Shown here piece after piece: positions 6,401 to 62,763 of a stretch of DNA of 62,763 nt. Both the position numbers and the translations under genes were made by a program. Location of the stretch: positions 1 to 62,763 of the IMG/VR virus record IMGVR_UViG_3300044641_003586. One strand, given 5' to 3'. The number at the start of each line of letters is the position of its first letter. Position 1 is the stretch's first letter. The notes under the pieces were generated by a model that did no database searches, was not told where the DNA came from, and saw nothing but the letters and a program-made list of their open reading frames with translations. The DNA comes from a virus (taxonomy: Duplodnaviria; Caudoviricetes).

Positions 6401-9400
6401 TTATCAGCCTGCTCAGCGACAAGGTTGGAGATTTCCAAGCGGTTTTGTTGCTCAATCCTCCACTTGGCAATCGCTTCATCTATTGCCTTTTCAGCAAGTT
6501 GACGACCTGTGTTTCCAGTCTTGTTCCACCCTTGTTCGGTAAGATTTTCATTTGCAGCAGCTTTGTCAAGATGAGCCATTAGCTTATTTTTTGCTTGCTT
6601 AGAAATCTCTGGTCTAGGATCGAGAAGATCCTCGCGTGAAACGCCAGATTCCTCCATTGCCAACGCAATCGCCCTTTTAGCTGCGGATGGAGAAAACGCC
6701 AGCGTTGGAGTCGGCGGCATAATTTTATTAAGCTCTGAATCCAACTCTGATTCTTCAATTCCAATTTCAGCCAACATCTCACGCACTTTCTTGCGTCCCT
6801 CGCTCCAAGAAGAAGCATAAACGCGAGCTTCACTCACTTGTTGGGCAAATGTCATTGCCAACATGCGTCCAAGCGAATCAGCATCAGTGGTTTTATCCAC
6901 CTTAATGTTAGCCAACAACGTGCGTTTAATGCTCGCAATAAGTTGCTGAATGCTAGAAATCTTTGATGGTTTTGCCATTGCTTGCTTAGCTCTTTTGAGA
7001 AGGGCATCAGCAACATTATCTACAATTTTCTCGCGAGTATCGTCGCCAGGCTTGAACAAGTCAGCCATTGCTTCTTCAATAGTGACTTGAGTGAATGTTA
7101 TATCTTCACCTTTGTTGGCACGATCAGTTGCAACATTGATAGCGGCATCCACTTTGGCTTTAACATCTTCTCTACCAGAAAGGCTAGAGTTGAGCTTTTT
7201 AAGTGCAGCGGACAGTTTAGCGTCAATCTCTTTTTCAAGAGCATTGGCTTCCTCATCCGACATCGCCATGATAGCATTGTATTCTTCATCTGAAACAATG
7301 GATGCCATTGCTTGATTGCCTGCACGGATGAGTTTGCGGCGATTGATGATGGCTTTGATTTTTAGGAATGACTTAATACTTTCAAAAGTATTTTTATCTT
7401 CTCCAGAAAGAGCTTCTTGGCCTTCTCGGAATAGCGCAGCATCTCGATCTTCTTGCGCCTGACCTTCAACCTCATTTGCAGTTGAATCAGAGACTCCTTC
7501 AACAGACCTGCGAAGCGATTCACCAATTTGAATGCTGACAGACCCTCCCATTTGAGAGTCGATTGCATCGACAGCGTTTTTCAACGCATCAGCCTTCCAA
7601 GAATCAAGCATCCAACCATATTTGCCATTGGTGGATTCCCAAGCACGATAGCCCATGACTGTTCCGCCAATCGTTCCAGAACCTTCATAGTAAGTGGAAA
7701 CATTGGTGTAAGCGTCATTGAGTTTAATGCGAGTTACATCATCCTTCGTTGTTAGAAGTGCTGAGTAAATCTTCGCATTCAACGGTCCCGCAACAGCTTG
7801 AGTAGCCAATAGCTTTTCTTCTGTTCCAGAATCAGCCATGTATTCATTGGCAAATGATGGATTCGTGATGGTATTCGCAATTTCGATTAGAGCATCGGCA
7901 TAAGACTTACCTTTTGCTTTTTGAGCGCGAATCATTTGATTCACGAAATCTTCAGCAGACTTTCTGACACCGCGATAATCAACGCGAGCATGAGTCTTGG
8001 GAGTTACACCAGTAAATGATAATCCTTCGTATGGAGTTTGTTCTCCTTCTGTTACAGATGCTTTCAGATCACTTGCCAGCTTGCTTGCAATTTCTGGCAC
8101 TTCGTTAGAAGGAATCATCGAAGCCATCGGTCCTTTGCCAAGTAGCACAACAGAGCTAACGCGATCACCGTCTTTATTGACCACCGAGAAATCACTCTCG
8201 CCTGCATTCAGCAAAGCAGAGTTGTTCTGATACATGGTCTGAACAGCCTCGCTGAACTCTTGCTGAGTCATGTCTGGCAGAGCTTCTAAAGCAGCTTGGT
8301 AAAGCTCGGAAAGCGGGACGGAATGACGCCCAGGCTTGCGAGACATGTTGTATGCACCTTCCAAAGCGGAATAAACATACATTTGGCGAGGCGTGAACGT
8401 CACCATTGACGCTGCCATCTGACCATTTGCGTAAGATGCCTCAGACTCGCTGGAATGAACGATTGGCAGAGAGAGACGGATGTCCGGCGATGTCGGCTGG
8501 AAGCGTTGCGAGGGAGGGATGATGTTGCCTGCGTTGTCTTGCACAGACACCGGTAATTTCAACCCCCCCTGCTCACGCTCATCGAAATCTGTGTTATAGG
8601 AATTAAAAACCGCCCAATCTTTGAGATTATTTCTCTGCGTGCGATTTAGCGGTCCTCCTTCGGTCATAACCATGTTTTCTTCCCAGCGGAACTGCCCTGC
8701 TTTGATTGCTCTTACTATGCGCCAGCCTCTCCCAAAGGCATATCCAACTCCATCATCGAGGTTTTTTGCTTTGAAAAATTCCTTGGCGAACACCGAATGG
8801 TTGTCCACAGGGATGATTCTTCCGTCTGGAAGAATCCAAACACCATAACCTTCCATACCACGGTTGCGTGCGCCTAAAGTTCTGTTTTCGACATCAAAAG
8901 CGCGTGAAGCCTTTTTTTCAGCAGCCTTCGCAGCCTCATCCACCATCCGCCGTGCCTTCTCCATGTCGCCAGCCTCAACCGCCGCGAGGTATTCGGCGTC
9001 TGTTGCGGGGGCAGCCATGCTCATCTGCGCTCCACCGCTACCGAACATGACAATCGCATCTTCTGGCGCGATGTTCTCGCTGGAGTAAGGCGCGGTTGCA
9101 GCGCGTTGCTCGTCGGTCATTGATTGTCTGGCTTGAACATCGCGGGCTTCGATTTCGCCAGCGAGACTACGATAAACCATATCAAGCCCTTCATTGCGCT
9201 TATTAAGAAACCAAGAGGTTCCAAACCGATCTTCAACGCGATTGATTGCAGAAAGCAAAGCAGCACGAACTGAGCCTTTGTCTAAGGATAGATTTTTCTT
9301 TTGTGCCGCCCAAATTTCATTAACTGTTTTTTGAATTTCTTCAATGCGATCATTTAGACTTTGAACAGCTTTTTTGTTCGGGCCACCAAAACCCAAAAAT

Positions 9401-12400
9401 CCGGTTTTTTCTTTCTCCTTTCGAACTTCGTCAACTAATGCAGCAATCTGCTGTCGGTATTTATTGATGGCTTGATAGGATTGACGGAATTTAACCGCAT
9501 CCAACAAGTCGGCCTTTGTCAGTAGGTTGTCTGGAGAACCACCTTTGGCGAAGCCTTCATTATTTTGTATGTAATGCTGAAGCTCATGGAGGATAGTAGA
9601 TAGTGACTCATCACTAATCTGGTCACCATCAAGTGTGACAGTGGCAGTAATAATACTGTTGCCGTTGACGGCACGATGCGATCCTTGAACAATATTTCCA
9701 CTGATCGGGAAAAATGCTATATTAGCTGCGTCAGGATATGCCTCAAACAACAATGGATGGTTTAAAACATCCGATATTTTGAGATATTGACCAGATTCGA
9801 GTCTGTCCACGACCTCTTTCCAAGGGAGGTGGCTAAATGCAGGTCCGCCATAAACCTTGGTGGATGCCTCGCGGAATGCCTTAGCATCAATGAAGGAGGC
9901 ATCATTGTCCGGCACTTCCCATCGCATCTTACCATCAAGTCCAGGGAACCAGCCCGTAGCAGCACGGATTTCCTCGCTGCTCTTGCCAGCAGCAGCCATC
10001 GCCTTCGCTGCATCGAGCGAGTCACGCATGAACTGACGGCGTTCTTCAGGAAGGTTCTCAATGGCTTTTTCGCCAATAAAACTCATCATCACATTCCCAC
10101 CATCTCTCGTTTGGTCAGTTGGAGTTGTTAAAACTTGCCCGTTTTCCTCCAGAATCTTGACTAGGTTCTCGTCAAAGATGACGTAGTTCCGCGTACCCTC
10201 TTGATCCTTGCGAATCAAGTCAGACAAAGCCTGTTCAGCGTAGCGTAGTGCGCTCTGATTAGTCGCGGACGGGTCGCGTTCAACGTCAGCTTTGCGGGCG
10301 GAGACTTCCGCCTTTCGAGCGCGAATTTCCAAAGGAGAAACGCGACTTTGCCCGTCAGCGTAGCGAATGCCGGGGATGCCGAGGGATGCGAGGTATTCGG
10401 AAGCTGCTTTTGCGGTATCTGTTGGCGTTGCTCCATTGCCACGAACACCTCGAATCAAATCATACAATCCCGATCCACTAGCCGTTGCGTCATTCAGCCA
10501 CAAATCAATCAGGTTTTGAACATTTACTGGCGCTCTAGGAATGCCCAAAGCAACGGCTTTTTCCCGTTGAGACATCTCCTTTCCTTCCATCTCAGCTTTC
10601 ATTTTACCCGTAAGGTCCGAAAGTAGGTCAAAAAAGACTTGCTGAACTTTTTCTGGCTGCTCACTCAGCGGCTTGTCCCAGTCTAAAAACTCGTCGGCGT
10701 CTGGCAGGAGTTCGACGGTGTAGAGGTTACCTCGTTCTTGGCCTCGCGCTTCCCGCATACCCCATTCAAGCGCAGCGGTTGAAGCCTTTGGATATGCAGA
10801 GCGCAAATCTTCGAGCGTCACTTTGCCATTGGAGGCAATAAACGATTTTGCCGCCTCGGTAAATGCAGAGTCGTAATCGTCAGGCTGACGCGGACGAAGC
10901 TGCTCTTGATAGGTTTTGGCCACCCTCTCACTTTCCGCAAAGTAAAGCCCCCATCCGTAAGCCTGCGCACCCTCGCCCGTGCCGATCTTGGCCGTTGTGA
11001 ACTTGTCCACCTTGTGCGGCGTTCCGTGATATGCGCGAACGCTCAACAGCACATTCCCACCGTCTTTTGTTTGATCGGCTTGTGCTTTTGTAGAGCGAAT
11101 CAAACCATTGCGGACAAGTCGCATGACATCCTTCATATCTTTGACCGTTGGCTGATTGCGCTTGCCAGTGATCCTGCGCCAGATTGCTGTCAAAAGCTCA
11201 AAGAATTGGCCCCAGATGCCATCCTTGGGAAGCACAGTGGATTGATCGAGTTTCTGATTTACGATTTCTTCAATCGCCTGGAAATACAACCTTGGATCAG
11301 AACGCCAGTTGGCATACTTAGTGTAAGTCTTGGCTAAGTTGTCCAAGGCTTCTTCACTGAAGATTGTCGCAAGGAATCGGCGCATTGCCACCATCTCACT
11401 TGGAGTCAAGTGCAGCATCCCCTTATGGATGTTCTCATGGCGCAACACACGCCTTACAGCAGCTACTTGAGGCGAAATGCCTAGCTCTTGAGCCGCTTTA
11501 CGGTCAAGATCGTAAACCACTACTCCATCTGTAAAAACAAATGGCGTGTTTGTCGCATCGTCGAAAAGACCTTCAATTTTCTTGTTGGTTTTAAGCGCAT
11601 TCCAAACTTGAGGATACAGTTGCTCATTACGAGGGTCAGCCAAAAATTCTTCGCGTGTAGTGACAACAGTGAAGAAGACATTAGGAAGCTCCTTGCCATC
11701 CTCAATTAGCCGCATGGCTTCATTTGCATCTTCTCTTGTGACTGTTCCAAAAACAGGATTGGTTTTCGTTCCAGCCTCAAGACTATTAAGAGCCTTGAGG
11801 TTTTCGTCCGAGTCTTTCTTTTGCTGCTTCGCGTCCTCCTTGTTTTGAGCCAAAGATTGAGGAGTTGACAAAGTTTCAGTTTCAGGTGAAACTTCGTCAA
11901 CCGTGGGAATCGACCCTTCCACGGGTTCAGCCTGAACAACACCGGGACCCCCCGCACCTTCGCGCAAGGGTGCGGGGGATGATTTTTCAGCTACAATGGG
12001 TTCAGCCACAGGCGCAGTCACCCCCTCAACTTCCGCTGCTTTCTCAGTAGGAACGACTTGTTCCGCATCAATCTGAGCCTTCCTTTGATCGGCAGTTAGC
12101 TTGGGTTTCTTTGGCATTTGCTCAACGCCAACGTCAGTAATAACAGGACTGCCTTTGTAAATTTCAACAAATCCCCTATTCACAAGGGCATCAATTTGAT
12201 CCTGACTTGCTGTATTATTATTAACAGCTTTAAGGTCTGAAGCATTGCTGGTGTTCTCAGCCTTGAGTGGCTTGTTTGGATCAAAGCGTTGCTCGCCAAA
12301 CTTGGGGCCAGTTAGGATAAGGGCAGTTGGATAACCATCCTCATCGTATTCATAGGTGACACGCATCTTGTCGTCTCCTACTTGGACGACATCGCCAATA

Positions 12401-14478
12401 TCTAAATCTCTGCGTGGAATCAAAGTAAGTGGCGCGGTTCGATCACTGGCAGATTTGTAAAATTCAATCGTGCGCTGTTCGGCAGTTTCCATCTGCTGCT
12501 CACCTTCTTTAATGAGCGAGGTGCCAGCTTTGCGAGCCTTGAAAGCCTCAATGATGGATTGCGCTAAAACAGTAGGATCGTTGCTTGGAATCAAGTTGGC
12601 CTCATAAGCCAAGCCAGTAATTTCATCCATGTTGGCGACATTTGTTCCCTCGCCGTAATCAAACGAGAAAAGCCGCCTCTTTACGGGGAGTGGCAATTCA
12701 TCTAAAATGCCTAATGCTTCAGCTTCGGCAGTTGCCTTTCTACGCTTAGCTTTTGGAACGAATACAATGGGTTTTCTGGCGTAATTCTCTTTAAGCCAAG
12801 TGATAATATCAGGAGCTTCCCCCGGTTGTTGCCGGGGGAGTCCTGCTTTCAAATCTACTTCTTCTTGGGCTTCGACTTGCCTGCCGACGACAGGGCGATT
12901 GCCACCGCCTGTTTCTGCGGTCGCCCCTCCTTCATCAGTTTCGATACGTTCTTGCTGACTGTCTTTTGGGATTTCCCCTTGTATAGTGGCATCTTGTGTT
13001 GGTATTGTTGGTGTTGGTGGTATTCCCACAGCGGGTGCTGCGGCTTGCTCCATTGTTGGAGGAAGTTGTGCTTGAGGCTCTGTGACAGACGCAGGAGTGA
13101 TTGGCGCAGGCGCAGGCGCAAGAGTGATTGGCGCAGGCGCAGGAACTATTGCAGCTTCAGCCGCTTTATCTGCCGCCAGTCTTGCTGCCTCTGCATTGGC
13201 TTTATCTGCCGATTGCAATTCAGATTGATTGATTGTTTCTTGAGCTGCTTGCGCTGATAACTGAGTATCAGGATTCTGCAATGCGGGATTGAGCATGTAT
13301 TTTGCACCCTCAATCGTTTTGTTGGCAGCAGATATAGGAACAGAAAGGGCCATTTCGCCCAGACCTTCTAGGAAGGCTTCTGTGGTGTCGATTTCTTGTC
13401 CAGCAGCAGCTTGGGCTGCAAGCTCCCCACCAACGGCAGCACCAGTTTCAATAGCGGAACCACCAGCCAAGCGAGCTAGATTGCCAGCAGATGAGAATTG
13501 TTTCTTCGCTGCTTCAGCAGCAGTTCTGGTTGCTGTTCTCAAAGCAGGATCAAGCAAAGCCTTATCCACTGCTTCTTTAGAGGCAATGTCCACACCAGCA
13601 TCTACCAGTTTCTTTTGAACAGCTCGCGCAGCAGCACGTTCTGGCATGGTCATCAATTTACCAGATCCCTTCATGCCAAGAGATTCAACAGCACCAATTA
13701 CCGTGCCTCGAATAGCTCCAGTTTTTAGACCCTCATCAAGAATATCAGGATTATCTTTGAGATAAGTCGCAATTTGGTCAGCCGTCATGTTGGCTGCTGC
13801 ACCTTGAGTGCGCTCATTCAAAACATCATAAATGGAAGGACCAGCCTCCATCAGAGTGTTAGACAATGCTCCACCAGCAATCGAGCCTGCAATGCCTGTT
13901 AGAATAGCTCCTGGACCAAGTTCAAGACCGCCAGCACCGCCAACCAATCCACCAAGTGCTCGACCAGCTAACTGAGTTCCAGCACTGATAATCACATTCG
14001 GAGCAGATTGAACGGCTGTCTTAAATGCAGCTCCCGGTTCAGCAAGAACGGCTGCTGGGTATTGAGCAAGAGCACCAATGTATTCAATCGGACCTTGAGC
14101 TTCTTCGCCTGCTTTTTTAGCCTCCTCAAGTCGGCGCATGAACTCAACATCTTCTGGAGTTTGCGCGGCCTGTTGCTCACGTTGCAGCTTGCCCATTTCA
14201 ACCATTTCAGCAGCTACATCTGCGGTGTCTCCAGTGAGAGCATTGAAGGTTGCCCCTACACCTGATGCCATCTGGCGATAGCCAAGTCCTAAAGCTGTTC
14301 CAAGCTGAGAAAAATAACCCGGAGTTTCACCAGTTGGCTGTTGAGGAGCTGTTTGCCCTCTTTGCTGAAGAATTTGCTGAATTGCTTCATCATAATCTTG
14401 CTGCGTTGGTTCAGTCTCCGTGTTGAAGGTCACGGGGTATTCAAGACCGTCAACTGTAATGGGAACTTGCCAAGGCAT
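3457..14478 (-). CDS. giant polyvalent internal virion / DNA-ejection protein (zincin-like HExxH, ART-like module, LPD23-like module)
   Basis: 3673-aa ORF at the end of the structural block. Contains [37 protein letters not shown] (ART-like) and [18 protein letters not shown]...[13 protein letters not shown]...[11 protein letters not shown] (LPD23-like). Confidence 0.85.
12855..12992 (-). CDS. small basic phage protein nested out of frame in the giant gene
   Basis: [45 protein letters not shown] resembles a widespread small phage protein family; preceded by an A/C-rich leader like other genes here. Confidence 0.7.
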
Positions 14479-18125: not shown

Positions 18126-19952
18126 ATGATACCCATGGGTAGAATGAAAAAGAAACCTACCGGACAACCAAAGTTTGTTCAGTTGACCAAGACGATCAAC
18201 ACCTATGGCATTGAGCTGAAAAACATGCCCCCAAATCAGCTAGAAGTTGAGCTGATGTTTATGAAATGTCCTACGGGGAGCACGCTCAACTATGGGAATG
18301 TTCCTAATCCCAAAGGGCATCCAAATTGGATTCATTTCATCAATGCTGTGAATCTGATTTGGAATTATCCTGGCACACGCACGCCTTTCATGTGGCATCC
18401 TTGGGCGGTCAAAATGGTCAAAGCAGCTTTTGAGAACAAGCGTTTGGCTGTCACTTCTGGAGGTTCAGGCGGGAAAACAGGTGTTTTTGCCGTTTTTGCT
18501 CTTGTTTGGTGGCTGGCTGGTCCAACAAGGAACGTAGTTCTAGTCAATACCACGACCATTAAAGACTCGATGGGACGTATCTGGGGCCAAATTACTCGCT
18601 ATTTCAATGGCATGGTGGCTCGACCTGCTGGCAAATTGGTTGAATCCTCCCATTGCATCAAATCCATCGACCTAAAAACAGGGGCAGTTATGGAGGAATA
18701 CGGCATCCGTTTGTTTGCCGGTGAATCCAGTAAAGCGGCTGAGTCTTCTCGCGCTATTCGAGGACAGAAGCATGGCCCTAATGGTAAAATTATTGTTATT
18801 CTGGACGAGTGCGCCGAGCTTTCTAAAGCCATTGTAAATACCTTCGAGGAAAACATTACTCAGAACCCGAATGTGCAGCTCATAGCCCTAGCGAATGCCA
18901 ATAGCCCATTCGATACCTTTGGTGATCTCTGTGAGCCAAAAGAAGGCGGATGGGACGCTTATAACCCCGATTGGGAGGAATGGGAAGGCAAAGGGGCGCA
19001 TGTCCTACGGATCAACAACGAAACCTCGCCAAACATCCTTGAAGGACGGACCATCTACCCATTCTTGATGACTCGCGAGATGTTGGAAGAAAAGCGAGAA
19101 AAGCTAGGGCAACATACCCGTGCTTACTGGCGTGGTGTTTTAGGGGCGTTCCTGCTGGATGGAGACGACGATAATATCTATTCCCCTGCCGAAATCTTGA
19201 AGGTTCCCAATGACTGTGTTTGGCAAGGCATCCCAACAAAGGTCTGTGGCATTGACCTGTCCTATACTAGCGGTGGCGATAAGACAATTATGACGATTGC
19301 CAGTATCGGTATTTGCACTGATGGGAAAAAGCGTCTCAAATTTGAGAAACACATTGCCCTTAATGATGATGCCTCTAGGCGCGATGTAGATCGAACCACT
19401 CAGTTGATTGACCAGATCAAAGATATTTGCACCAAAGAGGGAATTGACATCAAAAACGTGGCAATCGACGCATCAGCAGGTGGCGGCAAGACCTTTGCGG
19501 ATGCCATGTGGAGCAAGTGGGGCAATACCTTCCTGCGGGTGGACTTTGGTGGGAAAGCATCTGATCGTCCTGTTTCCGCTGCTGATCGTGAGAAATCCAG
19601 TGTGCGCTATGCCAATCGCGTGTCCGAACTTTGGGGAAGCGGCAAAGAACTCATCCGTTGCGACCAACTTCGCAATATCACAAAGGAGATGGCTGCTGAA
19701 ATGACAGTCCGGCAATACAAAGACAACAAAGCTCAGGATGGTGGTTCTCGCATCCGAGTAGAGTCAAAAGTGGATATGAAGCGTAGAACAGGCAAAAGCC
19801 CTGACTACTTTGATAGTGCAGCCGTTCTTATTGAACTATGCCGAGAAAGACATGGACTGTCTAGCATCGACAAGCCTGGCAATGTCCGAGAAGGAGTCCC
19901 AAGTCCATTGAAGAAGAAATTCAACCAGCTTGCGGGACTGTGGGCGGCATAA
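18126..19952 (+). CDS. terL: terminase large subunit
   Basis: Walker A GGSGGKT, Walker B IVILDE, coupling motif LAN; RNase H-like CGIDLS..GGD, AIDAS, GKSPDYFD. Confidence 0.9.
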   Translation: MIPMGRMKKKPTGQPKFVQLTKTINTYGIELKNMPPNQLEVELMFMKCPTGSTLNYGNVPNPKGHPNWIHFINAVNLIWNYPGTRTPFMWHPWAVKMVKAAFENKRLAVTSGGSGGKTGVFAVFALVWWLAGPTRNVVLVNTTTIKDSMGRIWGQITRYFNGMVARPAGKLVESSHCIKSIDLKTGAVMEEYGIRLFAGESSKAAESSRAIRGQKHGPNGKIIVILDECAELSKAIVNTFEENITQNPNVQLIALANANSPFDTFGDLCEPKEGGWDAYNPDWEEWEGKGAHVLRINNETSPNILEGRTIYPFLMTREMLEEKREKLGQHTRAYWRGVLGAFLLDGDDDNIYSPAEILKVPNDCVWQGIPTKVCGIDLSYTSGGDKTIMTIASIGICTDGKKRLKFEKHIALNDDASRRDVDRTTQLIDQIKDICTKEGIDIKNVAIDASAGGGKTFADAMWSKWGNTFLRVDFGGKASDRPVSAADREKSSVRYANRVSELWGSGKELIRCDQLRNITKEMAAEMTVRQYKDNKAQDGGSRIRVESKVDMKRRTGKSPDYFDSAAVLIELCRERHGLSSIDKPGNVREGVPSPLKKKFNQLAGLWAA

Positions 19953-22431: not shown

Positions 22432-23891
22432 GGGCCAGCAGTTGTTGTTGTAGTGGGCGGCTGAGTAGTGGTTGTGGTCGTTGTCGTGGTTGTGCTAGTT
22501 GTCGTAGTTGTCGGGCAAGTTGCCACTGCTGCTACTCCACTTGTGTAAAGATAAGTGGTCATTCCGTAAATGAAGTAGCCGTTGAACAAGGTGCTCAATC
22601 CAGCATCAGTAAATCCTGTGTCAGTGTTATTAAACGTAGAGTTCGCTGTATAGATAGTTACAGGATTTCCATCACAGTCCACTCCATTGTAAGCATACCC
22701 CGGAGGCGCAGTGGTTGTAGTGCTTGTGGAAGTGGTTGTGCTACTGGTTGTAGTTGTGCTGGAGGTAGTTGTGCTAGAGGTAGTTGTAGTTGTTGTGGGG
22801 CAGAACTGACCTTTTTCAGTTTTGAATCCAGAAGCAAATTGAACCAACTGTCTTGGATTAGCACTATCGTAGAAAAGTCCAGTAACAAGACCAAATGGAT
22901 CACGCGCTTCACACTCAGCAGATGAGTGGTAGTATGTCCGACCAAAACTAGGCCAATCATGGTAGTATAGCGTTACCGATGTAGATCCAGAACTGCATCC
23001 AAGGTAATACGTTTCAGAACCACATGGGGGAGAAGTTGTTGTAGTCGAAGTCGTTGTGGTAGAAGTTGTTGATGTGGTTGTTGAGCAATAGTTACCCAAA
23101 TTGGTTTTTATACCGTTAACGATTTCAACTAGCTCTCTAGGATAGCTATTGGTGTAATATAAAGCAGTTGCAAGGTAAGTTGGATCTAAAGATGCACAGG
23201 CATCCATTGTCTCGTAGTATTCATTTTCAGTTCCATTGAAATGATAATAGAGATTGGTGACAGAAGCATTTTCCTCACATCCCAAACGGAATGATTCTGT
23301 ATTGCACGGAGGCGGTGTCGTAGTTGTAGTCGTTGAAGTTGTAGTTGTCGTGCTGAATGGCGGACACGTTGTGCCTTGATAATATTTTACACCATCCACA
23401 AAATTGTATTTAGCCCGTGGATTTTCATCGCTGTAATAAACACCATTTACTAGGCTAAATGAATTGGATATTTCACAATCCGTTAGTGATTCATAATAAA
23501 TATTATTATAAGCATTATCAGTATGAGTGTAGAGATAAACAGAAATATCTCCCGGATCGCAACCAACCCACCACAACTCTGTCGAACATGGCCCGATTGT
23601 TGGTGTTGTTGTAGTTAGCGTAGGTGGAGGTGGATCACCACCAAGAAATGCAACTTGTCCAGTTATGATTCCATTTTTTGTTTGAAGCTGAAGAAAAGAT
23701 CCTGGTCCAAATGGAATTTGATTGTTACTAAAATCATCCACCTGAACATTGGATTTTGGTAATGTGCTAATAACCAAGGAGTTATCACTTCTTGGAATGT
23801 TGACTTCAATTCCAGACATTCCCCAAGTCCAGCTCCTATTATTAAATGGACTGCTGGTAGGATCAAAGTCGCCTTGAATGCCTTGTATCAT
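22428..23891 (-). CDS. Thr/Ser-tract, Cys-bounded repeat structural protein (tail/fibre-like)
   Basis: About four Tyr/Cys-rich modules separated by poly-T/S linkers. Confidence 0.7.
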   Translation of the reverse strand: MIQGIQGDFDPTSSPFNNRSWTWGMSGIEVNIPRSDNSLVISTLPKSNVQVDDFSNNQIPFGPGSFLQLQTKNGIITGQVAFLGGDPPPPTLTTTTPTIGPCSTELWWVGCDPGDISVYLYTHTDNAYNNIYYESLTDCEISNSFSLVNGVYYSDENPRAKYNFVDGVKYYQGTTCPPFSTTTTTSTTTTTTPPPCNTESFRLGCEENASVTNLYYHFNGTENEYYETMDACASLDPTYLATALYYTNSYPRELVEIVNGIKTNLGNYCSTTTSTTSTTTTSTTTTSPPCGSETYYLGCSSGSTSVTLYYHDWPSFGRTYYHSSAECEARDPFGLVTGLFYDSANPRQLVQFASGFKTEKGQFCPTTTTTTSSTTTSSTTTTSSTTTSTSTTTTAPPGYAYNGVDCDGNPVTIYTANSTFNNTDTGFTDAGLSTLFNGYFIYGMTTYLYTSGVAAVATCPTTTTTSTTTTTTTTTTQPPTTTTTAGP

Positions 23892-28093: not shown

Positions 28094-29089
28094 TCAGACG
28101 AAAATGGGGAACGTGACCGTTCTTCCATATCGTTTGTCAAAGATGAAGCCAGTCTGTGAAGGTGGCTCGTATGGGGCTTTAATGGCAATGGAGTAAGCAT
28201 TGTATCCAATAAGGCTATTGTTACAAATCCACTTGGGATTCTGCTGCGATTGATGCCAATGCCCGAAGATGTCGAGGTCTGCTGGAACGCCTTTGTTCCA
28301 CGCAGCGATAGCTTTTTCGACTGGAATGGTCAGACCACCGACACCACCTTGGTATTGCAAACCGTCTCCGTGGTGAATGCGGAGTGTCTTGCCGTAAAGG
28401 TCAAGAAGCAGATGGTAGCCGTCAGAGACATGCCAAGAGGCTTTGTCTCTCAGATGCTTTGCCATCGTCTTGTAGAGCATCCATTCGTAGCTGTTGGCCG
28501 CACCTGTGGCGTGTCGGGGTTTGCGCGTGTTGCGACCATGATTTCCGTAACAACATGGTATTACAATCTCACCAAAGTTCTTGGTAAGTAGATCAACTCC
28601 GCTTGCAATTTGGTCTTGAAGCCACAGAACCGTTTGTGTTGGCGATAGAGCGTTGTTCTCCATCAGTTCCTCATGGATGTAGCCCGTCATCAAGTCACCC
28701 CCTAAAACAAGCACTAAACGCTCAATTTTGGCCCCATGCCGCTGAATCTCAGCCATGCGGACGATAGACTGCCAAAAACGGTTAATGCGTTGCTCGGCAA
28801 TGTCGAGGTTGAACTCGTTGAGGCCGTTGATCGTCTTGCCTTCCACCGTTTCCTCCACATGCCAGTCAGAGGCTACGGCAACAAATGTGGCCTCGGCATC
28901 GGTTTCCTTGGCAACTTTGATTTTGGATGCCACTGGCTTTTCACCGGAAATGCCAAGGGCAATGTTGAGTTGCTGATCCTTTTCGGCAATGACGGCAAGG
29001 AGCTTCTTGCGCTCTACCTCATGGTCCGCCACCGTTTTCTTGTGACGAATCTCTTGGGTTTCGTGGACAGCGGCAGACCAGTTTTTCAT
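28094..29089 (-). CDS. calcineurin-like metallophosphoesterase
   Basis: SDWH, GGDL, GNHG, HHGD, GHWH. Confidence 0.88.
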   Translation of the reverse strand: MKNWSAAVHETQEIRHKKTVADHEVERKKLLAVIAEKDQQLNIALGISGEKPVASKIKVAKETDAEATFVAVASDWHVEETVEGKTINGLNEFNLDIAEQRINRFWQSIVRMAEIQRHGAKIERLVLVLGGDLMTGYIHEELMENNALSPTQTVLWLQDQIASGVDLLTKNFGEIVIPCCYGNHGRNTRKPRHATGAANSYEWMLYKTMAKHLRDKASWHVSDGYHLLLDLYGKTLRIHHGDGLQYQGGVGGLTIPVEKAIAAWNKGVPADLDIFGHWHQSQQNPKWICNNSLIGYNAYSIAIKAPYEPPSQTGFIFDKRYGRTVTFPIFV

Positions 29090-30138: not shown

Positions 30139-31434
30139 TTATGCGTTTGCTATGGTGGTTACAGTGCCAGAACTGCCGCGATACTTGAGTGCTCCGGCCT
30201 CAACATAAAGAATACCTCCGCCAGTAGGATTTGTGCTAGGAACGGGAGAGGCATTGCTAATAGCAAGCGCACCACTGCCATCACCAAGTTTGGATGAACT
30301 AATACTGCCAGCAAGCATAGTATTAGTAATGCCGTTGGATGGCACTGTGAGTGATCCTGAACTAAGGTTCAAACCAGAACCTACGGTGATTTCTTGTCCC
30401 ACAGCAAAGGTGCCGCCAGTGCCAAAAAGACGATTGCTATTTGAACCTGTAATCTGGTTCGGTGCGACAGTATTTTGAATCGCTAGAAAACCAAGCCCAA
30501 GAGTAAATCGAGCAGTCACAGCATCTGCATCGTCAATCAGAGTGCGCCCAAAGCTAGATAAATCCGTAACCGCTGCTGTGCCAGAGCCGATGAAGTAGGG
30601 CAGTTTATTCGCCGCACTAGTAAGTCCAGCCAAAGCATTCAAATTTGCATTGGCAGTTTGATACACCCAATTTACACGAATGAATAAAGTGCCGTTATTA
30701 GGATGAGCATGAACTACTGCCGCCACTTGAACAATATCACCTGTGGTCGGGGCTACATTGGTTAAACTACCACTGGTGTTGCCAGCGTAAAGGATGTTGC
30801 CATCCACCCAAGTTTGCGAATAGTTACCACCGTTGGTTTGAATGCCGCGAAGTTTGCCGAAAGCAATGACAAAACCTTCAGTTCCATTTGCTAAAGATTC
30901 TGCCGTCAACCCCATGAAGTAAGTAGATGGTCCAACTCCATCCCAAGGTTTCACAAGCAACTTGCCACTGTTGCCAGTCGTTCCAGCGAACATTACTGGC
31001 ACACCTTTGGCAATCGGACTTCCAGTTGAGTTTTTGACATGGAAAACAACATGCTCGCCCACATGAAGGGCAAAGCCATTAAGCTGAATATCAACGGTTT
31101 CCTCGTCCACATTCCACATGGCTTGACCCTGTGTAGTCAAACTGCCAGTTGGGGTGGTATCAAAAGCAATACTGTTGACGTTGGCTAGATCACCAAAATC
31201 CGACTCGGTAATTTGACTATTTTGAATGATCTTCCCACTCGTCCCATCAAAACGAACTAACTGATTATCAAGCGATGTGCTAGAACTGGTTACATCACCC
31301 ACTCCGCTAGATGGCGGCGCAACATTGACCAAAACTTCACCAGCAATCGTGGTATTAACTACAATCGCTCCATCCACCGTTACTTCAACCGTAGGCGCTG
31401 AATCTCCAGTAACAATGATGGTGGGTTCATTCAT
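30139..31434 (-). CDS. tail fibre-like protein
   Basis: [24 protein letters not shown]; [15 protein letters not shown]...[22 protein letters not shown]; [21 protein letters not shown]. Confidence 0.8.
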
Positions 31435-33833: not shown

Positions 33834-34103
33834 TCACTTAAAGACTCCGGCTTTCTTGGCGCGGGACATCATGGCTTCTTCATCGGATTCTTCCTTTTCA
33901 GGCATTTTCATCTCGATTTCAATTTCGCCACCTTCTTCTTCACCTTCCATTTCGGAGGTTGGAATAGCGGTTCCGTCGATTTCAGTGAGAGTGATGTTGC
34001 CATCTTCATCGGCCATAAACGTGCCGAGAGCTTGGAAGGGTTCACCGGGAGTAGCATCTTCTGGCATTTGCCAGCCTTCAGGAGATTGGAAAGTAAGTTG
34101 CAT
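33834..34103 (-). CDS. acidic hypothetical protein downstream of the MCP
   Basis: 89-aa E-rich ORF in the operon. Confidence 0.65.
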   Translation of the reverse strand: MQLTFQSPEGWQMPEDATPGEPFQALGTFMADEDGNITLTEIDGTAIPTSEMEGEEEGGEIEIEMKMPEKEESDEEAMMSRAKKAGVFK

Positions 34104-39768: not shown

Positions 39769-40818
39769 TTATGCTAGACTAACCCACTTGGCTGGTCCCG
39801 CAACCTTCAATCCACTGCCAGTTTCATTACAGGCGGCAATAACCTCGGCCAATGGAATCTGAAGCAAAGTAGCAACTTTCTTGGCAGTCATCTTCTCGGT
39901 AGAGGCTTCGATAGTGTTTTTAATCTTGAATGCCGTAAAACTGGCAGTCGGCAACTTGCCATCCTGTCCACTGAGACTTTTAGCTTCTTCAGCGGCAACC
40001 TGAACAGGTTCAGCTTTAGCTTTTTCAGGCTTAACCGAGTTGATTTTGTCCGCCAAAACAAGGTCCGCAAGGGTGCCATCTTTACAACCGTGGACAACCA
40101 CTGCATGTCCATCATAAGGCTTTGAGTGGTCAAGTTCTTGATCGCCAGTCAAGTCGTCACAAACAATCTTGCCGCCCTCAATACGGTAGTTTCCAGTATT
40201 CCAGTTGTGTTGGATGAGAATGGTATTGTGAGCGTGTGGAACAATCTCAAAGCGCATTTGGATGTCAAAAGGCTCAAGAGGTCCGCTCCAAGGCATCACG
40301 CGATCAATCTGGCCGATCATGGGAGACATAGCCCCAAGCGCATGATGGTAAATACCTGTGCCAACCATGTGAGGCTCGCCAAATGCAGCTTTGCGTGTTC
40401 CATTCGGAAGGAATGTCCATCCGCGAGTTGGAACAATCGCTCCCATGTGAGCTTTGCCGCTTTCGTGGTGCTCTTTCTGGAGCTTAGACAACCATCCTGG
40501 CTGAACTGGAGTGTTATCAAGTTCATACCAATACCAAGGACCATTAGTGTATTTCTCAGCGACAATCTGTGCCGTTTCGCGGAAATGCTTGGCTGCTGCG
40601 TCTGTTGCATTGCTGGAGTAGAAATCCAAAACATGAATATCTACGTTGCTGAACAACGGTTCAATTTCCTCAAGGAATTTGCGAGATTCGTTTTCAATCT
40701 CCCGACGAGCAAAAATCGCGCAGGAAAATCCAGCATAAGGACCAAACTTCTTAAAAACAGCAGCAGTTTTAGACAGCATCTTGATGTCGTGAGCCGACAC
40801 AGGGATAGCGAGTAGCAT
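39769..40818 (-). CDS. glycosyltransferase-like protein with C-terminal wHTH-like tail
   Basis: WYWYELDNTPVQPGWL (ExD), HMVGTGIY, VVHGCKDG. Confidence 0.55.
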   Translation of the reverse strand: MLLAIPVSAHDIKMLSKTAAVFKKFGPYAGFSCAIFARREIENESRKFLEEIEPLFSNVDIHVLDFYSSNATDAAAKHFRETAQIVAEKYTNGPWYWYELDNTPVQPGWLSKLQKEHHESGKAHMGAIVPTRGWTFLPNGTRKAAFGEPHMVGTGIYHHALGAMSPMIGQIDRVMPWSGPLEPFDIQMRFEIVPHAHNTILIQHNWNTGNYRIEGGKIVCDDLTGDQELDHSKPYDGHAVVVHGCKDGTLADLVLADKINSVKPEKAKAEPVQVAAEEAKSLSGQDGKLPTASFTAFKIKNTIEASTEKMTAKKVATLLQIPLAEVIAACNETGSGLKVAGPAKWVSLA

Positions 40819-56943: not shown

Positions 56944-57696
56944 ATGAGCACAGAAAATACAGAAACAGCAGCACCAACCCGTCAGCTTGCGAAGCAGCAA
57001 GCGACACTCAAAGACCTGATTAGCGGAGATAAGTTCCGCGAACAAGTTTCCCTCGCGCTTCCAGCGCATCTTACGCCTGAGCGTTTCAGCCGTATCGCTT
57101 TGAATGCCCTTCAGCGCACACCGAAGCTGCAAGACTGCACGCAAGCCAGCTTGTTTAAGTGCTTGCTTGATATGGCAGCTATGGGCATTGAGCCTGATGG
57201 TCGTCGGGCGCATCTCATCCCGTATGGCAACGAAGTCACGCTGATCCTCGATTACAAGGGTCTTCTGGAACTCGTTCGCCGTTCGGGTGATGTGGTTAGC
57301 ATCCGTTCCGAACTCGTCTGCGAGAACGATGAGTTCAGTTGGGAGAACGGTAAAGTCACGCACAAGATTGATTGGCGCAAACCCCGTGGCGAAATGCAAG
57401 CTGTGTATGCCGAGGCCGTTCTCAAGTCGGGTGAAACGCAAACTGCGACCATGACCAAGGATGAAGTGGATGCCATTCGCAAACGCAGTCGCAGTGGTAG
57501 CAATGGACCTTGGGCAACGGACTACGGTGAAATGGCGAAGAAGACAACCCTCCGCCGTTTGTGCAAATTGCTTCCGCTCTCTCCTGAGATTGCCGAGCAC
57601 GTTGACAAGGATCAGGACATCCGCACGGAAATCGACATCACGCCGAAGCCTGCCGCCTCCCTCAACCTTCCAAGCCAACAGGAGGTCGCGCAATGA
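56944..57696 (+). CDS. recT: RecT family single-strand annealing protein
   Basis: LPAHLTPERF.RIAL...PKL..C...S; AHLIPYG; YKGLLEL.RRSG; PWATDY.EMAKKT.LRRL.K.LP.S. Confidence 0.93.
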   Translation: MSTENTETAAPTRQLAKQQATLKDLISGDKFREQVSLALPAHLTPERFSRIALNALQRTPKLQDCTQASLFKCLLDMAAMGIEPDGRRAHLIPYGNEVTLILDYKGLLELVRRSGDVVSIRSELVCENDEFSWENGKVTHKIDWRKPRGEMQAVYAEAVLKSGETQTATMTKDEVDAIRKRSRSGSNGPWATDYGEMAKKTTLRRLCKLLPLSPEIAEHVDKDQDIRTEIDITPKPAASLNLPSQQEVAQ

Positions 57697-58487
57697 TTAT
57701 CCACGACGAAGCCACCTACCGAGCGCATCCCGCTCTCAATTATTCTTCAGCTAAATCACTGCTGAAATCGCCCAAGCACTTCCAAGCCGCGCTCAATCGC
57801 AAGTTTGAGCCTTCGCGGGAGATGATTATTGGCAGCGCGGTCCACAGCATCGTTCTGGAGGGCAAGCAACCTTCCTACATCGTTCGTCCTGCTGATCTCG
57901 ACCTTCGCACCAAGGAGGGTAAAGCATGGCGGGATAAGCACGCTGGCATGGAAATCGTTACGCAGGAAGATCACGACATTGTGCTTAAAGCTGCCGCTGC
58001 TGTGCAAGCTAGTCTTGACGCGCAGTATCTTCTCAAACTTTGTCCGCACCGAGAGATTGGTATTGTCTCCAATTACACCGGAGTGGAAATCAAAGGCAGG
58101 TTGGATGCTCATGGCAAAGACGAAGCTGGAAAGCCGATCATTCTGGACTTCAAGACAACGAGCGATGCTGATCCTGAAACGTGGGGCAAGAAAGCCTTTG
58201 GCCTTCGCTACCCCATGCAGACAGCATGGTATGAATCTCTACTAGCTCTTGAACTTGGCCTTGAAGAACCACCTGCTTATTTCTGGCTTGTGGTTGAGAC
58301 GCAAGACCCATTCGATGTTGTGATTTATCAGCCACCCGAAGAAGCTCTGGAGATTGGCCGCGCTCAAATGAAGCATTGCATCGAAAGCTATAAAACGTGC
58401 CTTGCCACAGGTAAATGGCCGGGATACACAAAAGGAATCATTCAGCTTGAAGTTCCTGTATGGGAACGCAAACGCTGGATCAAGTAA
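57693..58487 (+). CDS. RecE/exonuclease VIII-like PD-(D/E)XK nuclease
   Basis: S.AK.LL.SP; GSAVH; KGRLD; DFKTT; Y.MQ.AWY. Confidence 0.88.
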   Translation: MIIHDEATYRAHPALNYSSAKSLLKSPKHFQAALNRKFEPSREMIIGSAVHSIVLEGKQPSYIVRPADLDLRTKEGKAWRDKHAGMEIVTQEDHDIVLKAAAAVQASLDAQYLLKLCPHREIGIVSNYTGVEIKGRLDAHGKDEAGKPIILDFKTTSDADPETWGKKAFGLRYPMQTAWYESLLALELGLEEPPAYFWLVVETQDPFDVVIYQPPEEALEIGRAQMKHCIESYKTCLATGKWPGYTKGIIQLEVPVWERKRWIK

Positions 58488-59589: not shown

Positions 59590-59904
59590 ATGCCGACACC
59601 CATCATTGCTAAAATCGACGTTAAGAAGATCAACAAGGAATGGCTCTACACGGGAGCCAAGGGAACCTATCTGGATGCCGTGGTTTACGAAAACGATGCT
59701 GTTGACCAGTATGGCAACTCGCATGTTATCAAGCAAAATCCGCCCAAGGAAGCACGCGACCAAGGTGCGAAACCCGTCATCATCGGCAACTGCCGCTGGA
59801 TGCCTCAAAAGAACGGCTCTGGCAACGCCAAGCCTGCTCCACGTCCAGCGAAGCAGGATTCGTTTGCGGATGACACGGGCGACGATACAAGCATCCCATT
59901 TTGA
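59590..59904 (+). CDS. putative single-stranded DNA-binding protein
   Basis: IDV.KI.K..L..G.KG.YL...DQYGN...IIGN; acidic tail DDTSIPF. Confidence 0.75.
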   Translation: MPTPIIAKIDVKKINKEWLYTGAKGTYLDAVVYENDAVDQYGNSHVIKQNPPKEARDQGAKPVIIGNCRWMPQKNGSGNAKPAPRPAKQDSFADDTGDDTSIPF

Positions 59905-60145: not shown

Positions 60146-60601
60146 ATGAAGTTACACATTGGCATCGACCCTGGGCAGTCAGGAGGAATTGCCATCATCC
60201 CCGACAATAATCCCGCAAAAGCGTGGGCCGTAAAAATGCCTGATACACTGGCTGATTTGTGGGATGAACTGAGCAAGCATGAGCCTAGATGGGCTGGTGT
60301 TGAGGGCTTCGTTGTCCACGCATATCTTGAGCGTGTCCACTCCATGCCGGGACAAGGAGTTGCTTCATCATTCAAGTTCGGCCAAGGCTTCGGCCACCTT
60401 GAGATGGCACTCACCGCTGCACGCATTCCTTACACTTACGTCACTCCTCAGAAGTGGCAGAAGGAGCTTCAATGTCTCACCAAGGGTGACAAGAACATCA
60501 GCAAAGCGCGAGCACAGCAGTTGTTCCCGCATATCAAGGTGACTCACGCGATTGCAGATGCCCTGCTCATCGCTGAATACTGCCGGAGGACCATGAAGTG
60601 A
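60146..60601 (+). CDS. RuvC-like Holliday junction resolvase
   Basis: IGIDPG.SGG, LERV..MPGQGV.S.F.FG, VTPQKW, ADALLIA. Confidence 0.88.
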   Translation: MKLHIGIDPGQSGGIAIIPDNNPAKAWAVKMPDTLADLWDELSKHEPRWAGVEGFVVHAYLERVHSMPGQGVASSFKFGQGFGHLEMALTAARIPYTYVTPQKWQKELQCLTKGDKNISKARAQQLFPHIKVTHAIADALLIAEYCRRTMK

Positions 60602-61310: not shown

Positions 61311-61388
61311 TTCAAAAAACATTCAGAATCCCTATTGACTCTCGTTCGCCTTTGTGCGAGCAAACCTAGTCGCAAGACAACCCACAAT

Positions 61389-62288
61389 ATGAAAACAAAT
61401 AATAACATCATCACCAACACTGAAACCATCCGCCCACTTGTTCGCGGATTCTACGATTTGCAAAAGCTACGCATCCACACGGGCAACCGTTTGTGTGCTC
61501 AGTTCAGGTCCAAGCTAGGGCTGCAATCTTCCGAGAAGGAAGAAGAAGATGAAAAGGCCGAAGAAGTCCTCGACATCATTCGTGCTTCATACAAGAAGCT
61601 CACCGATGGGGTGAAGAAGGAATTGCCAAACATGAAGTCCTTCGTGGGCGACGAGGTGATTTCCGACTACACCGAGCTTTGCCTTGTCTCGCAATACATT
61701 GACCTTGAATCCCGCGAGAGCACACACCTTCGCCGCATCGAGAACATCGTGCAGGAACACCCATTGTGGGATGCGTTCTTCGCAGGCGTCCGTGGTTGCG
61801 GTCCAACAATGGCAGGCGTAATCTTGTGCGATATTGACATTACTCGCGCTACCTATCCAAGCTCTCTCTGGCAATACTCAGGTTTTGGCGTTGAAGCAGA
61901 TGGTCGCGGCACCAGTCGCCGCAAAGAGCACATGCACCGCATCAGCTACTTGGACAAGGAGGGCAAGCCTGCCGAGCGAGATGGCATTCGCTACAATCCT
62001 TGGCTCAAGACCAAGCTGTATGTCCTTGGCACTTGCTTCGTCAAGGCTGGCGGCTTGTATCGCAGTTACTACGACAACTACAAGAACCGCTTGGAGAACA
62101 GCCCGAAATGGGTGGAATCAAGCAAAGGACACCGACACAACGCCGCGATGCGTTACATGATTAAGCGGTTCCTCGTTGATCTTTACAAGGCTTGGAGGCC
62201 GCTTGAGGGTCTGCCAGTTGCGCCAGAATACGGCGAAGGCAAACTTGGCATCATCCACGGCCAAGTGAAGCTGCCAATGGCGGCATAG
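61389..62288 (+). CDS. Nop-domain (IS110/Nop5-related) RNA-binding protein, TasA-like, with no nuclease domain
   Basis: Coiled coil (YDLQKLRI..GNRL), then HPLW..F..VRGCGPTMAG.IL, SSLWQYSG, YNPWLKT, YR.YYD.YK.R, GHRHNAAMRYMIK.FL.DL...WR..EGL. No N-terminal RuvC/DEDD. Array abuts the stop codon. Confidence 0.85.
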   Translation: MKTNNNIITNTETIRPLVRGFYDLQKLRIHTGNRLCAQFRSKLGLQSSEKEEEDEKAEEVLDIIRASYKKLTDGVKKELPNMKSFVGDEVISDYTELCLVSQYIDLESRESTHLRRIENIVQEHPLWDAFFAGVRGCGPTMAGVILCDIDITRATYPSSLWQYSGFGVEADGRGTSRRKEHMHRISYLDKEGKPAERDGIRYNPWLKTKLYVLGTCFVKAGGLYRSYYDNYKNRLENSPKWVESSKGHRHNAAMRYMIKRFLVDLYKAWRPLEGLPVAPEYGEGKLGIIHGQVKLPMAA

Positions 62289-62623
62289 ATTTTGTCATGC
62301 TTGCTTAGTCACCCATCACCGTCGAGCGAGTCAATAACGCTGAGTCACCCATATGTTACGAGCGAGTCAATCAACGTAAATCATCCCTCACAGAGAAGCG
62401 AGTCAGGAGCACGCATACACCCATTAAATCGGAGCGAACCATAAACCATCTAGCCACCCAAGCTGGTTAAGTGAGCCTAGCGCCTAAAGTCACCCAAGAT
62501 ATATGAGCGAGTCATGTCCAGAAAGTCACCCCAGAGGGCACTAGCGAGTCAGTATGCTAAAGCCAACCAAAGCCCATTTGCGAGTCAAGTGACTAGAGAC
62601 ACCCAACATCTTGTAGCGAGTCA
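62289..62623 (+). ncRNA. TIGR-like tandem interspaced guide RNA array (9 units, ~36-nt period)
   Basis: Alternating 9-nt repeats AGCGAGTCA (10 copies, the first degenerate) and AGTCACCCA (9 copies), separated by 18 unique 9(-10)-nt spacers. Confidence 0.88.
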
Positions 62624-62763
62624 ACTATGAGCGATACTTGACACCCTGACCGTCCGGGGTAATGGGCGGGTGTGCCGGGTAGCTGCGTGAGAAACAGTCC
62701 GGTCAAAATCGAGCCTAACTTTAAATGCTGCCCACCTTCCGGCGACCTCCTTGCTCAGGATTT

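Follow-up and report, generated by a model that had tools for sequence, protein, structure and literature searches.

A dual-repeat TIGR-TasA locus with a variable guide array in the genome of an uncultured freshwater tailed phage

The window analysed here is the whole of the IMG/VR virus record IMGVR_UViG_3300044641_003586, 62,763 bases in length, and is the complete 62.8-kb genome of an uncultured freshwater tailed phage. Close to one end of this genome, on the plus strand, lie the two elements with which this report is concerned. The gene tasA (61389..62288; ATG at 61389, TAG at 62286-62288) encodes a solo-Nop TIGR-associated protein of 299 amino acids (aa), and a dual-repeat TIGR array (62289..62623) begins at the base after its stop codon. 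An initial annotation, which was made from the letters alone, had described a phage-encoded RNA-guided system at this site, and the gene content of the window is that of a tailed phage.

The array is built on the plus strand from two alternating repeats of 9 nucleotides (nt), an edge repeat AGCGAGTCA and a loop repeat AGTCACCCA, and contains 18 spacers together with 10 edge repeats, of which the first is 5'-degenerate, and 9 loop repeats. The edge repeats start at 62289 (the degenerate ATTTTGTCA), 62325, 62361, 62397, 62433, 62470, 62506, 62543, 62579 and 62615, and the loop repeats at 62307, 62343, 62379, 62415, 62452, 62488, 62524, 62561 and 62597. These repeats delimit nine units with lengths of 36, 36, 36, 36, 37, 36, 37, 36 and 36 nt in order. 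Sixteen spacers are 9 nt long and two are 10 nt long; all 18 are distinct, with at least three mismatches between any two of the 9-mers. The initial annotation had read the same structure after the 299-aa gene, with alternating repeats, 18 spacers and 9 units of 36-37 nt. The repeat positions and the parse agree with that reading, and the sole difference is trivial and concerns the extra base of unit 7, which can be counted with either the loop repeat or spacer B.

Unit 1 (62289..62324) consists of the degenerate edge repeat, spacer A TGCTTGCTT, the loop repeat and spacer B TCACCGTCG. Both repeats are perfect in unit 2 (62325..62360; spacers ATAACGCTG and TATGTTACG), and the loop repeat carries three mismatches in unit 3 (62361..62396; ATCAACGTA and TCACAGAGA). 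Unit 4 (62397..62432) has the spacers GGAGCACGC and TTAAATCGG. The 37-nt unit 5 (62433..62469) combines an edge repeat with two mismatches, a 10-nt spacer A, TAAACCATCT, and the spacer B AGCTGGTTA; in unit 6 (62470..62505; AGCGCCTAA and AGATATATG) the edge repeat has three mismatches. Unit 7 (62506..62542; TGTCCAGAA and AGAGGGCACT) is again 37 nt long. The last two units, unit 8 (62543..62578; GTATGCTAA and AAGCCCATT) and unit 9 (62579..62614; AGTGACTAG and ACATCTTGT), are present in all five close relatives with 0-1 and 0-2 changes, respectively. A complete terminal copy of the edge repeat (62615..62623) closes the array.

The edge repeat is commoner than expected by chance. The exact edge repeat occurs nine times in the window, six of them in the array, against an expectation of 0.48, and none of 100 shuffles reached nine copies. 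Allowing at most one mismatch, the loop repeat has 24 matches in the window against 11.8 expected, and six of these lie in the array at 36/37-nt spacing. The array is non-coding, since each of its six reading frames contains at least four stop codons. Its RNA folds no better than shuffled sequences (z +1.66; 96 of 100 shuffles fold at least as well), and no complementarity was detected between spacers A and B within units (mean 2.27 of 9 positions versus 2.23 in controls). Tandem Repeats Finder reported nothing at the array because half of each unit varies. A search of Rfam with E values up to 1 yielded chance-level matches only, none of them significant in the array; a box C/D snoRNA model matched inside the coding region with an E value of 0.078. 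The first edge repeat retains only its 3' GTCA, and 5' degeneration of the first edge repeat is also described for TIGR arrays in the available text of Faure et al. (2025, PMC12045711).

The protein was assigned by sequence and by predicted structure. A Pfam search of the 299 residues gave nothing significant. In a phmmer search against the sequences of the PDB, exactly two proteins were matched, TaTasR (9MTY chain A, E 9.1e-12) and SpTasH of Salicola phage CGphi29 (E 2.2e-8), and a profile of 30 homologues matched the same structures more strongly (TaTasR E 3.7e-22, TasH E 9.2e-17). An AlphaFold2 model built on the alignment of the 30 homologues reached a predicted local distance difference test score (pLDDT) of 86 and a predicted template modelling score (pTM) of 0.78. 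It contains two long helices (residues 11-43 and 94-122), which form the coiled coil, followed by a helical domain that includes a small beta hairpin and extends to about residue 290; the Nop domain spans residues ~125-290, with a candidate processing dyad at Y281/H290. When this model was compared with the PDB by Foldseek, each of the ten best matches was a TasH or TasR chain, with E values from 8e-10 to 3e-7, and the next ranks were occupied by IS110-type recombinases (E ~0.02) and then by Prp31 and Nop5/Nop56 (E ~0.5). The same ranking of fold matches is given for Tas proteins by Faure et al. (2025, PMC12045711). Thus the Nop-type protein with a coiled coil that the initial annotation had predicted, and had proposed to verify by structure prediction and Foldseek, is borne out by Pfam, phmmer, the profile search, the model and the fold comparison, including the order of TasH/TasR first and IS110-type and Nop5/Nop56 proteins thereafter.

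No HNH or RuvC nuclease domain was found in the protein by Pfam, in the AlphaFold2 model or in the alignment to TasR. Residues 21-37 align to residues 121-137 of TasR, beyond the TasR RuvC domain, and the model is helical from residue 11. There is no space for a nuclease domain in the 299-aa protein, which is therefore of the TasA type. On homology and the predicted fold, the window protein is a Tas homologue of this nuclease-free type. We also considered whether a RuvC-like open reading frame (ORF) at 60146-60601 could be the detached nuclease of a split TasR. This was rejected since the ORF encodes an ordinary Holliday-junction resolvase (phrog_1770, E 1e-27; MOC1/RuvC in the PDB), and among 117 related loci only 3 have it next to tas.

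A different origin is suggested by existing labels. In PHROGs the protein belongs to phrog_4285, labelled 'transposase' (E 2.3e-39), some homologues carry PF02371, and a homologue in phiRSL1 (35% identical) is annotated as a transposase. The locus might then be a remnant of an IS110-type transposase next to unrelated tandem DNA repeats. We regard this explanation as hardly credible. A DEDD/RuvC domain is absent both by Pfam and in the AlphaFold2 model, the structural matches to Tas proteins (E 1e-9) far exceed those to IS621/ISCro4 (0.02), which cover the shared C-terminal part only, and the window genome contains a single copy of tas. In addition, a 36-nt dual-repeat array lies beside tas, upstream or downstream, in 69 of 75 further viral loci with 45-65% identity; in four of the six loci where none was found, the contig ends within ~160 nt of tas on one side.

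Two features of the protein bear on RNA processing and assembly. Y281, which aligns with Y289 of SpTasH, is shared without exception by the 30 homologues, and at least 90% of these also keep the histidine H290. In SpTasH, Y289 and H296 are the catalytic residues that cut pre-tigRNA, according to the accessible part of PMC13421893. The available text of Xu et al. (2026, bioRxiv 10.64898/2026.09.09.750476) describes the Y/H dyad as a mark of dual-repeat systems, with stem-loop clades being devoid of the Y/H loop. The protein is further predicted to form a coiled-coil homodimer. Prediction of a two-copy complex gave a score of 0.68 against 0.13 for the best of three controls, with at least 91% contact agreement between runs and a partner pLDDT of at least 79. 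That mark was attained for 20 of 30 proteins that have been solved as one-chain pairs, and for 1 of 23 that have been solved as single chains. In the predicted symmetric dimer the interface is formed by helices 10-38 and 93-120. Because Tas dimers have already been solved and may be reflected in the outcome, this prediction is a likeness and not an independent proof.

These data indicate that the locus is a dual-repeat TIGR-TasA system as published; the system is genuine, but its kind is already known. Dual-repeat arrays of this type have two alternating repeats of 8-12 nt, spacers of ~9 nt and a unit of ~36 nt, and lie next to tas. The architecture is that described by Faure et al. (2025, PMC12045711), as far as the available text goes, and the assignment to the TasA type in the initial annotation holds. 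The published catalogue already lists 20,096 tas loci as well as 4,126 dual-repeat arrays, which makes the kind a known one, and the window locus may itself be in that catalogue.

Upstream of tasA lies a conserved intergenic leader or 5' untranslated region (61311..61388, plus strand). Its mean column identity in the window and four close relatives is 96%, and it is nearly invariant from 61311 on. The leader is better conserved than tasA itself. It contains two repeat-like words, TGCGAGCAA (61355-61363) and AGACAACCCA (61375-61384), 20 nt apart, which may be an autoregulatory binding site for TasA or the relic of a unit.

Homologues were numerous, with 1,729 proteins at E <=0.001 among 2,255 candidates. 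Five viral loci encode TasA proteins 95-98% identical to that of the window. Their tas genes are followed directly by the two repeats seen in the window, in arrays that differ from that of the window and comprise roughly 10-13 units. Window units 1-7 occur in none of these five relatives; units 8-9, which lie farthest from tasA, occur in all of them, with 0-2 changes. The initial annotation had named homologous loci without arrays, or with invariant spacers, as evidence that would count against it; the close relatives carry arrays, and most of their spacers differ. The older shared units diverge by point changes, for example at 3-4 of 18 positions. Contigs from lake sequencing runs show a similar picture inside single samples: several match the window through the leader and then diverge at 62297, 62298 or 62315 into other spacers with the same repeats, and others rejoin the window just before unit 8. 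A general rule of array variation at the 5' end was unsupported family-wide. Among 36 non-identical array pairs sharing at least two units, 11 share the 3' end only, 9 the 5' end only, 4 both and 12 neither, some of the parses being incomplete.

Several side observations concern the structure of these arrays. In the relative L003, a hybrid repeat AGCGAGTCACCCA at 2868-2898 consists of an edge repeat to which the end of a loop repeat is directly attached. A deletion through recombination at the AGTCA common to both repeats would account for it, and might be one route of unit loss. The distant relative L082 has arrays on both sides of tas, at 9420-9897 and 11039-11480, with 13 and 12 units as parsed. 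In a comparison covering window positions 62624-62763, homology among the relatives extends precisely as far as the last edge repeat and stops there. Past the array, the window, L002 and L003 share one sequence, which contains TTGACA, and L001, L004 and L005 share another, which opens with a 7-bp inverted repeat.

Repeat conservation was assessed in 745 distinct units drawn from 76 arrays (the window and L019-L098). Edge and loop repeats both have A at position 1 (99%), C at position 8 (99%) and A at position 9 (92-93%), and G at position 2 is found in 52% of edge and 95% of loop repeats. The consensus is therefore A(G)...(C/T)CA, a variant of the published UG...CCA motif. In the same units, spacers A and B are both A-rich (~35%) and C-poor (~17%) on the transcribed strand, with C at position 9 in only 7%. 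Purine-rich RNA on pyrimidine-rich DNA would give stable short hybrids.

Taken together, we consider it highly probable that the window carries a dual-repeat TIGR-TasA system in the replication/recombination block of its phage. By analogy with studied family members, the locus most likely yields 36-nt tigRNAs that guide DNA binding without cutting. According to this model, tasA and the array would be transcribed together, and a coiled-coil TasA dimer would bind the 5' A(G) and 3' (C/T)CA ends common to edge and loop repeats, with one tigRNA per dimer. The C-terminal Y281/H290 loop would cut within each edge repeat and free 36-nt tigRNAs, each arranged as the 3' half of an edge repeat, then spacer A, the loop repeat, spacer B and the 5' half of the next edge repeat. 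Each ribonucleoprotein might then unwind ~18 bp of double-stranded DNA, spacer A pairing with one of the strands and spacer B with the neighbouring segment of the opposite one, with no need for a protospacer-adjacent motif (PAM). The bound, bent complex would block transcription, or replication, at the target; a transcriptional blockade is proposed because the protein has no nuclease.

Published work on the family provides precedents for several of these steps. Pairing of tandem spacers with both DNA strands and independence from a PAM are described for TIGR-Tas in the available text of Faure et al. (2025, PMC12045711), and published work on the TasA family, as far as accessible, reports that FpTasA binds 36-nt RNAs. 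MbTasA binds target DNA in electrophoretic mobility shift assays and represses a reporter and chromosomal genes without cutting, according to the available text of Xu et al. (2026, bioRxiv 10.64898/2026.09.09.750476). The non-cutting programmable binder or repressor suggested by the initial annotation agrees with these experiments on other TasA proteins.

On the other hand, several points weigh against a working guide system of this kind. RNA processing, DNA binding and repression by the window protein are extrapolated from the published family, and repression has been reported, in the available texts, for other TasA members, of which at least PlTasA uses stem-loop arrays. H290 lies two residues past the alignment column of SpTasH H296. 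The degenerate repeats of units 3, 5 and 6 (2-3 mismatches) and the 37-nt length of some units may mean that these units provide no working guides. The array ends in a full edge repeat, no terminator-like site was predicted in 62624-62763, and the array end that the available text of Faure et al. (2025, PMC12045711) gives as typical ('typically') differs from that of the window. As to co-transcription, the sole hint is a single metatranscriptome contig, which covers 62139-62315, from the 3' end of tasA into the array, and stems from a variant and maybe from library DNA; parts of the stretch that the RNA runs leave uncovered carry no weight as evidence. Finally, for the nine guides of the window, the 1.14 Mb of DNA from related phages contains no site with at most two mismatches.

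The question of what the guides recognize was addressed by searching both possible arrangements of the two half-sites, as the accessible parts of the published texts do not state the arrangement of the target. The likeliest candidates for targets are competing phages or genes of the host. The available TIGR-Tas and tigRNA literature reports no natural targets for TasA guides. The window's own genome contains no site with at most three mismatches for any of its nine guides in either arrangement, which argues against self-regulation by full pairing. We think it rather improbable that the guides regulate the phage's own genes as a lifecycle switch or silence host genes during infection. This proposal would fit the position of the locus in an early-type replication/recombination block, upstream of and on the same strand as helicase and primase genes, and both host silencing and lifecycle regulation are listed as possibilities in the available text of Xu et al. 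(2026); its self-regulatory form is opposed by the lack of own-genome sites.

The same TIGR-TasA machinery might instead be aimed at competing, mosaically related lake phages, with fast-renewed guides directed against regions that the carrier lacks. Co-occurring strains do differ in their arrays. Units 1, 2 and 9 of the sister array in L004/L005 have sites with two mismatches in the window at 40130-40147, 33912-33929 and 8756-8773, where shuffled spacers would be expected to give 0.15 such sites (0.35 over six genomes). All three sites are arranged as the reverse complement of spacer A followed by spacer B, and they lie in segments without nucleotide homology in the relatives. We regard these sites as suggestive only. 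The choice of the three hits was partly post hoc, and their mismatches include central spacer positions.

A family-wide search was then carried out with 746 in-unit spacer pairs against the 1.14 Mb, counting distinct hits with at most two mismatches. True units gave 57 hits in the arrangement reverse complement of A plus B and 46 in the other arrangement. With re-paired spacers (30 sets), the corresponding means were 36.7 (standard deviation 5.7, maximum 48) and 38.6 (standard deviation 5.4), and cross-unit pairs (715 pairs) gave 35 and 38. The excess of near matches for true units is weak but consistent, and is not a demonstration; it would predict the reverse complement of A plus B as the target arrangement. 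No exact matches were found in this search, and the two one-mismatch hits correspond to the control level. In all, the window contains six two-mismatch sites for guides of other arrays (6318-6335, 8756-8773, 23669-23686, 28119-28136, 33912-33929 and 40130-40147); in all six the reverse complement of spacer A plus spacer B is read on the minus strand, which is the coding strand there by a rough ORF call.

Scans for exact targets did not strengthen the link to related phages. For L004/L005 unit 1, the exact target sequence was present in nine viral contigs, mostly GC-rich, none of which is homologous to the window phage. For the window guides, unit 2 has no match in the viral contigs, and unit 1 (reverse complement of spacer A plus spacer B) has one, at L145 4432-4449. 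L145 is an unrelated viral contig of 27.7 kb with 46% GC, where the match falls within an ORF of 435 aa, and a single match is at chance level. The exact-match scans are consistent with chance, so that no target is established. On balance, the use of the guides against competing phages is a doubtful but arguable extension of the TIGR-TasA assignment. A more specific scenario, in which the array serves a clade of lake phages as a fast-turning inter-phage weapon, its tasA-proximal units being replaced while the two distal units persist and the combination of reverse-complemented A with B being aimed at segments found solely in mosaic relatives, appears unlikely to us as a whole.

The remainder of the genome provides the setting of the TIGR-TasA locus. 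A helicase (246-1736) and a primase (1715-2716) lie at one end, and an ORF of 3,673 aa extends over 3457-14478 on the minus strand. This ORF makes up one sixth of the genome, and its sole PHROG match is phrog_21376 (function unknown; E 8.9e-15, residues 1487-1665). The large terminase is encoded at 18126-19952 and a tail-fibre-like protein at 30139-31434; the terminase had no match among 50,697 deposited phage records. Upstream of tasA are genes for an exonuclease VIII-like PD-(D/E)XK protein (57693-58487) and the Holliday-junction resolvase at 60146-60601. The plus-strand recombination/replication block to which they belong ends with tasA and the array, and in the relative G002 it runs on into helicase and primase genes. 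No terminal repeats were detected in the window genome.

Likewise upstream of tasA, a 104-aa protein (59590-59904, plus strand) belongs to phrog_24909 (function unknown) and ends in an acidic C-terminal tip, DDTSIPF, which we take to resemble the C-terminal tail of bacterial single-stranded-DNA-binding (SSB) proteins. Three distant loci (L030 9650-9928, L044 2626-2895 and L101 518-802) encode a homologue of this protein, at a distance of ~70-80 nt upstream of tas. Neither the resolvase nor any other neighbouring gene is kept beside tas across the family.

The stretch was contained in lake and freshwater metagenomes, 16 runs of which include at least half of the sampled words; for nine of these, an origin of the present DNA in the run is conceivable. 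Its closest relatives are mosaic: only ~19.6 kb (G002) and ~17.5 kb (G005) of the 62.8 kb align, at ~89-91% nucleotide identity, despite a TasA identity of 95-98%. Relatives of tas in genomes are spread over metagenome-assembled genomes (MAGs) of many phyla, and no host could be named from them.

The system itself is not new, since TIGR-Tas was published in 2025 and repression by TasA was described in a 2026 preprint. The value of the present locus lies in its setting, that is, a complete phage genome, near-identical TasA proteins with different arrays, and recurrence in lake metagenomes. The TIGR papers, in their available parts, leave two questions, namely the natural targets of the guides and the way in which arrays gain units, and a time series of lake viromes could approach both. 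If the inter-phage weapon were true, the near matches would represent the first case of natural targets for a TasA system, and these lakes would be a natural setting for watching the gain of units.

In comparison with known systems, the locus shares variable spacers between close strains and a likely non-cutting interference with CRISPR arrays and their nuclease-free effectors (type IV and V-M), as far as the available descriptions of these go. It differs in its 9-nt repeats of two alternating kinds and in a guide split over both DNA strands; CRISPR-Cas systems have a single repeat of ~25-36 nt, spacers of comparable length and cas genes. A CRISPR-Cas identity was rejected on the basis of the two 9-nt repeats, the 9-nt spacers and the absence of any cas-specific match in the eight ORFs of ~3.7 kb upstream (exonuclease, resolvase and small ORFs). 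To our knowledge, no adaptation genes are known for TIGR systems.

Box C/D ribonucleoproteins with Nop5 or Nop56/58 likewise have a Nop fold, form a coiled-coil dimer and use a guide RNA in which two spacers lie between box-like motifs. The fold match to them is weak (E ~0.5), the window protein lacks the fibrillarin-binding N-terminal domain, and the target in the Tas family is DNA. Set against what we take to be the canonical box C/D consensus, the repeats AGCGAGTCA and AGTCACCCA are without K-turn boxes. An identity as a box C/D ribonucleoprotein was rejected, as the AlphaFold2 model has no N-terminal domain before the coiled coil. The IS110/IS621 recombinases share the Nop-like RNA-binding C-terminal domain (Foldseek E ~0.02), whereas the window locus has no DEDD catalytic domain, bridge RNA or transposon ends and possesses a many-guide array instead.

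Within the Tas family, SpTasH and TaTasR (9MTY) have homologous coiled-coil and Nop folds, and the window TasA, a predicted dimer, keeps the dyad tyrosine. Unlike these proteins, to which it is ~20-25% identical, it lacks HNH and RuvC domains, and cleavage is not expected. MbTasA (Xu 2026) and PlTasA (Guan 2026) are likewise nuclease-free, and both were shown to bind DNA, according to the accessible texts; PlTasA uses stem-loop tigRNAs, whereas the window has a dual-repeat array and keeps Y281/H290. The repeats of TasR arrays contain UG...CCA box D-like and box C-like motifs, which covary elsewhere, as described in the available text of PMC12045711. Relative to the dual-repeat systems of the FpTasA type presented there, the window repeats begin with AG and not UG, the edge repeat ends with TCA and not CCA, and the array closes on a complete edge repeat, after which no terminator is predicted. 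The features that the window locus shares with FpTasA of Flavonifractor plautii (PMC12045711) and systems of its type are a solo Nop protein, two alternating repeats, 9-nt spacers, a 36-nt unit, a 5'-truncated first edge repeat and carriage by a phage.

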